A stretch of DNA of 4,615 nt from a virus (taxonomy: Duplodnaviria > Heunggongvirae > Uroviricota > Caudoviricetes): the IMG/VR virus record IMGVR_UViG_2734482549_000007; one strand, written 5' to 3'. The position numbers and the translations under genes are program-made. The notes beneath the pieces are model-generated. The model made no database searches. It had not been told where the DNA came from and saw only the letters and a list, made by a program, of their open reading frames with translations. This document shows, one piece after another, positions 1,510-3,657 of the stretch (its first letter is position 1; each line of letters opens with the position of its first letter).

Positions 1510-1932
1510 ATGGCGAAACCTTTTACTCCCGAACAGCGGGAAGAACTGAAGACGCGAATTGTGGAACTCGTGCATCAGGACGGTCGGGTCACGATTCGGC
1601 AGTTGTCAGATGAAACAGGTATCAGTCGTGCGTCTGTCGGTCGCTTATGCATAGAACTGGTCGCAAGTGGTGATGTATATAATTCTGGCTACGGCTTATT
1701 CCCGTCTGAACAGGCTCGCAAGGACTGGCAAAGCGCCCGCAAAAAACTCTCGAGAGTAAAGGTGAGGAAACCGGTTGTTGTTGATCCGGACCTTATCTGG
1801 TCATTACCTGACGGAGAAATACGCCGCTACGACAGGCGCCTGAATATAATCTGTCGCGAGTGCCGGAAGAGCGAAGCTATGCAGCGTGTACTGGCTTTCT
1901 ATCAGGGTAATTTTCAGGAGGCGATACTGTGA
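1510..1932 (+). CDS. Hypothetical phage protein with predicted N-terminal winged helix-turn-helix
   Basis: ATG at 1510 with GGAGG at 1501-1505; 140-aa ORF. The segment RVTIRQLSDETGISRASVGRLCIELVASGDV looks like a typical HTH recognition unit; the C-terminal part is basic with a CxxC (CRECRK). Family not recognised. Confidence 0.7.
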   Translation: MAKPFTPEQREELKTRIVELVHQDGRVTIRQLSDETGISRASVGRLCIELVASGDVYNSGYGLFPSEQARKDWQSARKKLSRVKVRKPVVVDPDLIWSLPDGEIRRYDRRLNIICRECRKSEAMQRVLAFYQGNFQEAIL

Positions 1933-1989
1933 ATGAAATTAGCTATCAGGCTTCAATTACCGCTGGCATTCGCATCAAAGGAGAGGAGC

Positions 1990-2346
1990 ATGGAAATAAA
2001 ACCAGAAGATGAGTTAAGCAATATCGTTTTATTTCCGGTAAAAGAGGATGACCCTCGTAATCAGGTTAATTTTCTTTATGAGCCATCGGAAAGACCATAT
2101 TGCCATCACGCCTCTGTACGGGTTGACGAAAAAGAGCGTCAGGTCCGCTGTAAAATCTGCGGTGCGGTTGTGGAGCCGTTTGACTGGATGCTCTCTGTGG
2201 CAAAAAGAGAAACCAGACTGGCAGATGATGTAAGGCTATTGCGCCAGGAGGAACAGGAAAGGCGGAGAAATATAGAAAAGCTGATACAGATTGAGCGTAA
2301 CGCGAAAGCGCGGATACGCAGGGCGACAAAATCCAGAACTGAATAA
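1990..2346 (+). CDS. Hypothetical small protein with putative zinc-ribbon (C-H-H...CxxC) and C-terminal charged coiled-coil
   Basis: ATG 1990 with AAGGAG (1978-1983) at 6-nt spacing. An alternative in-frame ATG at 1933 directly abuts the stop of the upstream gene (TGA 1930-1932) but has a weaker, more distant SD. Motif YCHHASVRVDEKERQVRCKICG; the tail is rich in R/E/Q. Confidence 0.65.
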   Translation: MEIKPEDELSNIVLFPVKEDDPRNQVNFLYEPSERPYCHHASVRVDEKERQVRCKICGAVVEPFDWMLSVAKRETRLADDVRLLRQEEQERRRNIEKLIQIERNAKARIRRATKSRTE

Positions 2347-2493
2347 TTAAATTTAGCACTGTTAAAAATTTAATCCTTAACCGGAGGGATTTCTGCACCC
2401 TCAAATCATCAGGAGACCACCCGAAAGGGCGGGGAGCAGTCACACATCTGTTTCCGATAGCCCCGTTCTAATGCTACACTCTTTGATATTTTT

Positions 2494-3180
2494 ATGACCC
2501 CAATAAACATATTTATGACAGTTGCTGATTTCAAACGGCCCAAATTGGAGCTCCCAAACGGGGCAAACAAACTACTACTGCACTCTTGCTGTGCTCCATG
2601 TTCCGGTGAGGTGATGGAGGCGCTTCAGGCCTCGGGAATCGACTACACCATCTTTTTCTACAACCCGAACATTCATCCTCAGAAAGAGTATTTAATTCGT
2701 AAGGATGAGAATATTCGCTTTGCTGAACAACACGGCGTGCCGTTTATTGATGCTGATTACGACACAGACAACTGGTTTGAACGAGCCAAAGGAATGGAAT
2801 GGGAGCCCGAACGAGGGATCCGTTGCACCATGTGTTTTGACATGCGTTTTGAGCGGACAGCGCTGTACGCCGCTGAAAATGGTTTCAGTGTGATCAGCAG
2901 TTCACTGGGCATTTCACGCTGGAAAAATATGCAGCAGGTTAACGACTGTGGGCGGCGAGCCGTCGCGCATTATCCGGGCATGGTGTACTGGGATTATAAC
3001 TGGCGCAAGCAGGGCGGCTCGTCCCGTATGATTGAAATCAGCAAGCGCGAAAAATTCTATCAGCAGGAATATTGTGGCTGTGTGTATTCTCTGCGCGATA
3101 CCAATCTACACCGCAAATCTCAGGGACGCCCTCTTATCAAAATTGGTCAACTCCACTACGGTAAAGAAGAGAAGGAGTGA
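2494..3180 (+). CDS. queH: Epoxyqueuosine reductase QueH-like protein (DUF208 family)
   Basis: 228-aa ORF containing [11 protein letters not shown] near the N-terminus and EYCGC near the C-terminus, which I recognise as hallmark DUF208/QueH motifs. Start is ATG 2494 or ATG 2515; neither has a clear SD. A possible extended -10 (TGcTACACT, 2472-2480) lies upstream. Identity is from motif memory. Confidence 0.75.
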
Positions 3181-3331
3181 TTTTATGGGGCACCTTTCTG
3201 ATTGATTTCATATTGGCGAGGTAAGTAGAATGACTGCGGGTGCTTGAGGCTATCTGCTTCAGGCATGAACACCAAAAGGCAGATAGAGAAAAGCCCCAGT
3301 TAACATTACGCGTCCGGCAAGACGCTTAACA

Positions 3332-3657
3332 NNNNNNNNNNNNNNNNNNNNNNNNNNNNNNNNNNNNNNNNNNNNNNNNNNNNNNNNNNNNNNNNNNNNN
3401 NNNNNNNNNNNNNNNNNNNNNNNNNNNNNNNNNNNNNNNNNNNNNNNNNNNNNNNNNNNNNNNNNNNNNNNNNNNNNNNNNNNNNNNNNNNNNNNNNNNN
3501 NNNNNNNNNNNNNNNNNNNNNNNNNNNNNNNNNNNNNNNNNNNNNNNNNNNNNNNNNNNNNNNNNNNNNNNNNNNNNNNNNNNNNNNNNNNNNNNNNNNN
3601 NNNNNNNNNNNNNNNNNNNNNNNNNNNNNNNNNNNNNNNNNNNNNNNNNNNNNNNNN
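3332..3657. other. Unresolved sequence (326 N)
   Basis: Run of n characters between the queH-like gene and the terminator. Confidence 0.95.

Follow-up and report, generated by a model that had tools for sequence, protein, structure and literature searches.

A QueH-family queuosine synthesis gene carried as recurrent cargo on lambdoid prophages of Escherichia coli

Why does selection keep a gene for the last step of queuosine (Q) synthesis on phages? The question is raised by a 4,615-nucleotide (nt) stretch of Caudoviricetes DNA (IMG/VR record IMGVR_UViG_2734482549_000007; the whole stretch is referred to here as the window), which shares 98.8–99.9% identity with a lambdoid prophage found in E. 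coli FDAARGOS_944 and encodes a QueH-type epoxyqueuosine (oQ) reductase. An initial annotation, made from the letters of the window alone, had placed a QueH/DUF208 epoxyqueuosine reductase among the phage early genes, and this identification is backed by sequence, residue conservation and predicted fold. Its further description of the gene as a candidate for an undescribed function was overstated, given that the protein already has the name QueH in RefSeq; the undescribed part is the reason for its carriage by phages. The answer we favor, and consider reasonably probable, is that a canonical QueH was captured by a lambdoid phage and serves as a cobalamin-independent backup for QueG that benefits lysogens.

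Positions 2494..3180 of the window (plus strand, as for all window features given below) hold an intact open reading frame (ORF) of 228 amino acids (aa), the queH reading frame. Its product matches the Pfam family QueH (PF02677) over profile positions 1–174 of 175, with an E-value of 1.9e-65 and a score of 220.6 bits, the cut-off being 23.5; a significant hidden Markov model (HMM) match to QueH/DUF208 was one of the checks that the initial annotation had proposed. Because this match is full length, the ORF is, by its predicted product, not a chance reading frame. The solved QueH of Thermotoga maritima was also matched in sequence (PDB 7lc5, E = 5e-22). The HSCCAPCS and EYCGC motifs that had first drawn attention to the ORF are both present within the span originally given, although the start of that span required correction. 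ATG 2494, the start first proposed, is found in prophage copies only and not in chromosomal homologs, whereas ATG 2515 is kept in the chromosomal homologs and is the start used by the NCBI Prokaryotic Genome Annotation Pipeline (PGAP; 221 aa, WP_012421537.1). The true start of queH is probably ATG 2515 rather than 2494, giving a predicted coding sequence at 2515..3180 (221 aa plus stop) to which the Pfam match, the PDB match and the structural model all refer. The seven in-frame codons from the upstream ATG (2494..2514) are probably leader rather than coding sequence, because ATG 2494 is absent from the chromosomal homologs and follows the −10-like hexamer described below by only 14 nt.

Residue conservation was assessed in an alignment of 46 sequences, in which the query was joined by T. 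maritima QueH and 44 diverse representatives of 50%-identity clusters; the residue pattern was the same in a second alignment, of 41 sequences. All invariant columns are retained in the prophage protein (C32, C33, P35, N59, R69, E106, R110, C111, C114, K144, C194, and C196, numbered on the 228-aa frame), as are the near-invariant positions N57, E65, Y66, Q191, G195, and S199. The conserved cysteine pattern CCxPC ... RCxxC ... YCGC, the iron-sulfur (Fe-S) and metal ligands of the family, is thus present in full (C32, C33, C36, C111, C114, C194, and C196). The first of these groups lies in the HSCCAPCS motif (2581..2604; Cys32, Cys33, and Cys36), whose C, C, P, and C do not vary among the 46 aligned sequences except for an Asp in T. 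maritima; the second lies in RCTMC (2821..2835; Arg110, Cys111, and Cys114), all three columns being invariant, and the third in EYCGC (3067..3081; Cys194, Gly195, and Cys196), whose columns are listed as invariant, with Gly195 near-invariant in the fuller account of the alignment. The single departure concerns Cys36, which is retained in a column invariant save for T. maritima and aligns with Asp13 of the T. maritima enzyme (CCAPD there, CCAPC here). Among 233 homologs with the motif, 223 have CCAPC and three have CCAPD, so that Cys at this position is, on the sequences sampled, the family norm and not a ligand loss, and Asp is a T. maritima-type variant that does not define the family. The expectation that both the cysteine and the aspartate ligands would be found therefore held for the cysteines, all of which are kept, and not for the aspartate.

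The predicted fold agrees with this assignment. An AlphaFold2 model built from the alignment had a mean predicted local distance difference test (pLDDT) score of 95.5 and a predicted template modeling (pTM) score of 0.91, and its best PDB matches were the five T. maritima QueH entries (target-normalized template modeling [TM] scores of 0.90–0.92, root-mean-square deviation [rmsd] 1.2–2.0 Å, ∼30% identity), with a TM score of 0.92 and an rmsd of 1.2 Å on 7lc5. Farther structural matches were to tRNA enzymes of the adenine-nucleotide alpha-hydrolase type, e.g., TtuA, TilS, and MnmA. All tests available here place the protein in the QueH family, and the enzyme itself appears ordinary; its oQ-to-Q activity is predicted from 83–93% identity to chromosomal QueH, and we regard it as very probably a functional, canonical QueH.

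The gene is widespread in E. coli. A megablast search placed queH in 995 of 5426 complete genomes (about 18%; 985 at ≥80% coverage), with nearly all matches 95–100% identical and all of those listed annotated as “epoxyqueuosine reductase QueH.” Carriers include O157:H7, O104:H4, ST131, APEC O1, and strain 042, as well as the laboratory strains B, REL606, ATCC 11303, C, and ATCC 8739; queH was not found in the regions of MG1655 that were checked. Three of the 1017 places at which QueH occurs in E. coli genomes are on plasmids, possibly phage-plasmids, and some genomes have two copies. In a set of one representative genome per species, the prophage context was common only to E. albertii and Shigella flexneri. 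On the phage side, close copies occur on 188 viral contigs in IMG/VR, or 215 when any relative bearing the QueH motif is counted, and the isolated temperate Escherichia phage HannyBb carries queH at 8001–8687 (95.6% nucleotide identity), where it is annotated “hypothetical protein.” The other QueH-like matches in phage records were human-gut “Bacteriophage sp.” fragments (32–50% identity, unannotated) and Staphylococcus and Listeria records; among all phage-record matches, HannyBb is the only close one that is also an isolated phage. One further candidate, “Acinetobacter phage MD-2021a” (CAKLQH020000001.1, 328 kb, with a QueH homolog at 78% identity), was rejected because it looks like a mislabeled segment of bacterial chromosome rather than a phage, with dadA, soxR, tadA, cynX, and further ordinary genes nearby.

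Comparison of these loci delimits what has moved. Homology among the prophage variants starts abruptly at 2444 of the window in most cases and at 2420 in a few; downstream it ends at about 3186 in some loci, including HannyBb, which breaks at 3186, and continues into sok/hok in most. Chromosomal copies align with the window from 2451–2467 to 3184–3187, nearly the prophage cassette exactly, and we therefore annotate a QueH cassette with sharp homology edges, common to differing prophages and to chromosomal homologs, at 2444..3186. The surrounding sequence is mosaic, with 15 upstream and 16 downstream flank classes among the 84–86 of 89 loci that had enough flank. The immediate neighbors are nevertheless constant: of the 77 distinct loci in prophages, 68 had enough sequence upstream of QueH, and DUF977 is found there in 64, while 67 had enough on the downstream side, where hok is found in 56. 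Given these variable flanks, sharp edges and constant neighbors, queH is a discrete cassette in a constant DUF977-hok slot of mosaic prophages. This also answers a check proposed at the outset, namely whether homologs recur at the same position in other lambdoid prophages; they do.

The same slot can be followed in other Qin-type prophages. In Qin of MG1655 (5120–5873 of the region), the relBE toxin-antitoxin pair fills the slot directly upstream of hokD, and in E. coli B, REL606, C, and ATCC 8739 it is QueH that occupies this slot of their Qin-like prophage (7022–8455 of the E. coli B region). The position beside hok looks like a hotspot of cargo exchange.

Chromosomal relatives indicate where the cassette may have come from. 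The closest outside Escherichia are those of Enterobacter hormaechei, Scandinavium, and Kluyvera (91–93% aa identity); other Enterobacter QueH proteins share 83–90%, and those of Erwinia, Providencia, Proteus, and Serratia roughly 80–88%. In the loci inspected, their contexts are not those of phages: Providencia queH adjoins tmcA with purC, bamC, and dapA nearby, Erwinia queH lies between purL and glrK-glrR-glnB, and the genes of Enterobacter, Serratia, and Kosakonia sit amid ordinary chromosomal genes. About 43 nt upstream of the start, at 2472..2480, the window has an extended −10-like element, TGCTACACT, with the hexamer TACACT at 2475–2480. This element is kept in the prophage copies and in chromosomal copies from Enterobacter, Scandinavium, Kluyvera, and Sodalis, the version in the last three being TGCTACAAT or TGCTATATT; Erwinia has a TACACT or TAAACT hexamer at the same place, without the TG. 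We read TGCTACACT as a putative promoter element carried over from the chromosomal copies. RNA folding of the 161-nt leader gave a result no different from that of shuffled sequences (z = −0.43). The simplest reading of these comparisons is that a chromosomal Enterobacteriaceae queH was captured together with its promoter-proximal region.

In its present hosts, the enzyme would not be alone. QueG was found at ≥80% coverage in all 5426 complete E. coli genomes, and because queG is in every one of them, QueH is expected to duplicate QueG in the carriers. E. coli makes no cobalamin (vitamin B12) de novo, and since QueG needs this cofactor, a B12-independent backup is the most economical function that can be proposed for the prophage enzyme. 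Zallot et al. reportedly found in 2017 that A. baylyi ADP1 has both QueG and QueH and that Q is lost only when both are deleted. S. aureus also has both, and their differing expression has been interpreted as a response to cofactor availability (PMC13443448). QueH is described as a non-orthologous replacement of QueG (PMC5372724) and is iron-dependent rather than cobalamin-dependent. According to PMC4646009, which cites Frey et al. (1988), cobalamin dependence had been demonstrated for the last step of Q synthesis, and QueG is an enzyme that depends on cobalamin and Fe-S.

A gene whose product is duplicated in every host could simply be a passenger, functional yet useless, that spreads with successful lambdoid prophages. 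The universal presence of QueG fits such a neutral hitch-hiker, as does the recombination-prone mosaic junction, which permits spread by linkage. The pattern of selection does not. We aligned 84 copies from the conserved start, comprising 80 viral contigs, HannyBb, FDAARGOS_944, E. albertii, and S. flexneri. All 84 are intact at 221 codons, and their 20 nucleotide alleles encode only six proteins. Relative to the window allele, the most divergent alleles have 19–22 synonymous and 1–5 non-synonymous differences, corresponding to ratios of non-synonymous to synonymous substitution rates (dN/dS) of 0.01–0.05 at dS of 0.15–0.18. The prophage queH is under strong purifying selection. Nearly all of the 995 genomic matches likewise span the whole gene, and in E. 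coli B and REL606, queH is intact in a defective Qin-like prophage in which several of its neighbors (a methyltransferase, DUF968, and tail genes) are pseudogenes. With dN/dS this low at dS up to 0.18, full-length copies throughout, and survival beside decayed neighbors, we consider the hitch-hiker explanation improbable.

The backup function that we favor can be laid out as follows. A lambdoid phage would have taken queH from an Enterobacteriaceae chromosome, along with ∼70 nt of the native sequence upstream of it, and the gene would now be accessory cargo between the replication/Ren-like genes and the hok/sok module. Its product, a canonical Fe-S, cobalamin-independent QueH, would convert oQ to Q at the wobble position (34) of the Asp, Asn, His, and Tyr tRNAs. 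In lysogens of E. coli, Shigella, and E. albertii, this would supply a second QueG-type activity with no need for vitamin B12, such that maturation of Q-tRNA could be sustained when corrinoids are scarce or not taken up, to the gain of the lysogen and hence of the prophage. The enzymatic activity, the transcription in lysogens from the gene’s own promoter and the benefit of B12 independence are what we infer in this account. The purifying selection and the retention of queH in a defective prophage bear indirectly on its putative expression from a repressed prophage and on a benefit to the lysogen.

Several observations weigh against it. A scan with the NCBIfam HMMs returned no family for the protein at E ≤ 0.01; PGAP names it QueH in all genomes listed, presumably via a rule other than an NCBIfam HMM. 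The guanine-plus-cytosine (GC) content of queH is the same as that of its flanks, no obvious Shine-Dalgarno sequence was seen before it, and a generic scan for promoters and terminators in its vicinity yielded no convincing sigma-70 promoter (the −10-like element was not called) and no terminator on either side. Since queH is co-oriented with the early-right operon, expression restricted to the lytic cycle is possible. We also know of no strong phenotype of oQ in place of Q in E. coli, which makes the size of any benefit uncertain.

A broader formulation, in which QueH acts in lysogenic conversion to uncouple Q-tRNA maturation from both the vitamin B12 supply and the BtuB receptor, is a speculative extension that we hold to be rather unlikely. 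If it were correct, roughly a fifth of E. coli strains would decode NAU/NAC codons unlike K-12 under B12 limitation, and the strains concerned would include major pathotypes as well as B/REL606, C, and ATCC 8739. There could also be effects on gut fitness, on tolerance of btuB loss (with respect to phages and colicins that use BtuB), or on sensitivity to toxins that cleave Q-family tRNAs.

The co-orientation with early genes leads to a different role, in which queH is an auxiliary gene of the lytic cycle: QueH made from the early-right (pR-type) transcript would raise Q over oQ, and thereby improve phage translation or pre-empt a host response that works via Q levels. The location of queH between replication and nin-type genes in the same orientation, with a terminator found on neither side, speaks for this role, and the gene is also present in at least one free temperate phage, HannyBb. 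A 2026 preprint also reports that phage-infected Shewanella shifts oQ to Q, there through induction of queG, so that the step can be of importance in an infection. Codon usage gives no such signal: no enrichment of NAU codons was seen in prophage genes relative to flanking host genes, the fraction NAU/(NAU + NAC) being 0.54 for the early genes of the prophage and likewise for its late genes, compared with 0.65 for the flanking host genes, a weak test given the small host sample. The native −10-like element has been kept with the gene, queH is intact in a defective prophage unable to grow lytically, and tRNA turnover is presumably slow relative to a lytic cycle. We rate a lytic function as possible but doubtful. 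The retuning of host tRNA decoding during infection, which the initial annotation had raised, loses ground for the same reason of codon usage and also because the prophage’s own tRNAs are not Q-tRNAs.

Yet another possibility, with circumstantial support, is counter-defense. Q rather than oQ at position 34 could alter recognition of GUN-anticodon tRNAs by anticodon nucleases of the colicin E5 type, or could make loss of BtuB free of cost as far as Q is concerned. The tRNAs cleaved by colicin E5 are exactly those of the Q family, and the colicin enters via BtuB, which is the receptor for B12, phages, and colicins. The slot beside hok/sok holds conflict cargo elsewhere, as with relBE in K-12 Qin, and strong purifying selection shows that queH matters. 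On the other side, colicin E5 cleaves both G34 and Q34 tRNAs, so that an effect of oQ vs. Q is uncertain; the enzyme is indistinguishable from housekeeping QueH; and the only conserved partners are hok/sok and DUF977, both of them generic among lambdoid phages. A PADLOC scan of QueH and three neighbors returned no match to a defense system, a result that also leaves the link to anticodon-directed nucleases proposed earlier without support. Counter-defense seems to us quite improbable.

The enzyme might also have been neofunctionalized to act on another 7-deazaguanine substrate, e.g., phage DNA or a free nucleoside, as the initial annotation had allowed. Phages do use preQ0-derived 7-deazaguanines in their DNA (PMC6884629), and T. 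maritima QueH was crystallized with GMP and with queuosine, going by the PDB titles. No DpdA/Tgt-family genes or genes for preQ0 synthesis (FolE, QueD, QueE, or QueC) were annotated, however, in the 40.7-kb prophage region from integrase to baseplate genes. The prophage protein is 83–93% identical to chromosomal QueH, keeps the invariant residues and has a very low dN/dS. To our knowledge, oQ is known on tRNA only, where it is made by QueA. In the 7-deazaguanine-DNA phages that they analyzed, Hutinet et al. found no QueA, QueG, or QueH (PMC6884629). A changed substrate is thus extremely improbable, and a cobalamin-independent backup for QueG in lysogens remains the account that we prefer.

The wider locus was mapped on the FDAARGOS_944 prophage, which is integrated beside ybhA in the gal-mod region and confirms that the gene lies between the replication and nin-like genes of a prophage. 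Its gene order runs from integrase/excisionase through cI-like, cro-like, ydaT, DUF1376-like, ydaV (DnaC-like), DUF977 (PHROG “Ren-like”), and a hypothetical gene to QueH, followed by sok/hokD, a hypothetical gene, DUF1367, DUF1364, DUF1133, four tRNA genes, the lysis genes, and then the head and tail genes. In the window, the DUF977/Ren-like protein that ends the replication module is encoded at 1510..1932 (Pfam DUF977, E = 1.1e-33; PHROG 142, “Ren-like exclusion protein”). The gap between it and QueH holds, at 1933..2346, a 137-aa zinc-ribbon-like protein (PHROG 1621, unknown function, E = 5e-56; a weak, below-cut-off match to a zinc ribbon), which is missing from many QueH prophages. Directly downstream of QueH, the sok antisense RNA and hokD toxin occupy approximately 3238..3563 (a second entry gives 3238–3657), as mapped from FDAARGOS_944, since 3332–3657 is masked in the window. 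In the FDAARGOS_944 locus, sok (Rfam RF01794, 117 bits) lies at 20745–20920 and the type I toxin hokD is annotated at 20915–21070.

The window itself is imperfect in places. It is N-masked at 1219–1493 (part of the DnaC-like ydaV) and at 3332–3657 (the hok/sok region), the second run exceeding the corresponding FDAARGOS_944 stretch by 63 nt, and its first ∼100 nt have no match to the FDAARGOS_944 locus. Compared with FDAARGOS_944, the copy of a 262-aa DUF1376/YdaU-like gene at 1–787 is broken into three frames (12 gap positions), which reflects either prophage decay or indel errors of assembly. QueH is unaffected, being 100% identical to the FDAARGOS_944 copy despite the split gene upstream.

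The tRNA cluster of the prophage, at 23276–23586 of the FDAARGOS_944 locus between the DUF1133 gene and the lysis genes, comprises tRNAs with anticodons CAU (annotated Ile), UCU (Arg), UGU (Thr), and UCC (Gly). These tRNAs were considered as substrates of QueH and ruled out, none of the four being a Q-tRNA.

Labels for the gene in phage databases lag behind those in RefSeq. PHROG 3217 is described as “unknown function,” and its profile covers the 221-aa protein only from residue 34, after CCAPC, onward, which suggests that it was built on N-terminally truncated gene calls and that truncation is systematic in phage genomes. Both this label and that of HannyBb can be corrected to QueH. A literature search combining QueH, DUF208, or epoxyqueuosine reductase with phage or prophage found no paper in the searchable library that discusses a prophage-borne QueH; the enzyme is ordinary, and its carriage by phages appears undiscussed in searchable papers. 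The finding matters in part because E. coli is the textbook organism for queuosine, with the last step taught as QueG- and B12-dependent, and ∼18% of its complete genomes carry a B12-independent enzyme on prophages. Phenotypes of queG mutants and the oQ/Q status of tRNA should accordingly be strain-dependent in E. coli. In addition, an enzyme for the last step of a tRNA modification joins the host-derived cargo of phages; the viral 7-deazaguanine genes surveyed in 2019 included no QueA, QueG, or QueH.

Set against known systems, the protein shares the full domain, invariant residues and fold of the QueH family (DUF208, PF02677, COG1636; T. maritima PDB 7lc5, 7lc7, and 9deu) at 30% identity to the T. 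maritima enzyme, from which it differs in having Cys for Asp13, as do ∼96% of sampled family members, and ∼20 extra residues at each end, which are common to other gammaproteobacterial QueH. It departs from the family in its setting, on a prophage and not in a chromosomal housekeeping context. The chromosomal QueH of other Enterobacterales is the closest counterpart (83–93% aa identity, a length of ∼214–231 aa and the same start, with the closest members also sharing the −10-like element), yet it sits among housekeeping or accessory genes (purL-glrK, tmcA-purC, and LysR neighbors) rather than in prophages. QueG (YjeS) is assigned by family to the same reaction and occurs in the same cells, but is non-homologous, needs cobalamin and two [4Fe-4S] clusters, and is chromosomal and universal in E. 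coli. The 7-deazaguanine gene sets of phages (DpdA, FolE, QueD, QueE, and QueC, sometimes with QueF, ArcS, and Gat-QueC) are likewise phage-carried pathway genes; they insert preQ0 derivatives into DNA and are reported without QueA, QueG, or QueH (PMC6884629), whereas here a lone last-step tRNA enzyme is carried. A parallel in genome organization is with lambdoid morons of the early-right region such as relBE beside hokD in K-12 Qin: queH sits in the slot immediately upstream of hok/sok, has mosaic flanks, is host-derived and may have a promoter of its own; relative to morons, queH has no detected terminator and its GC content is not distinct.

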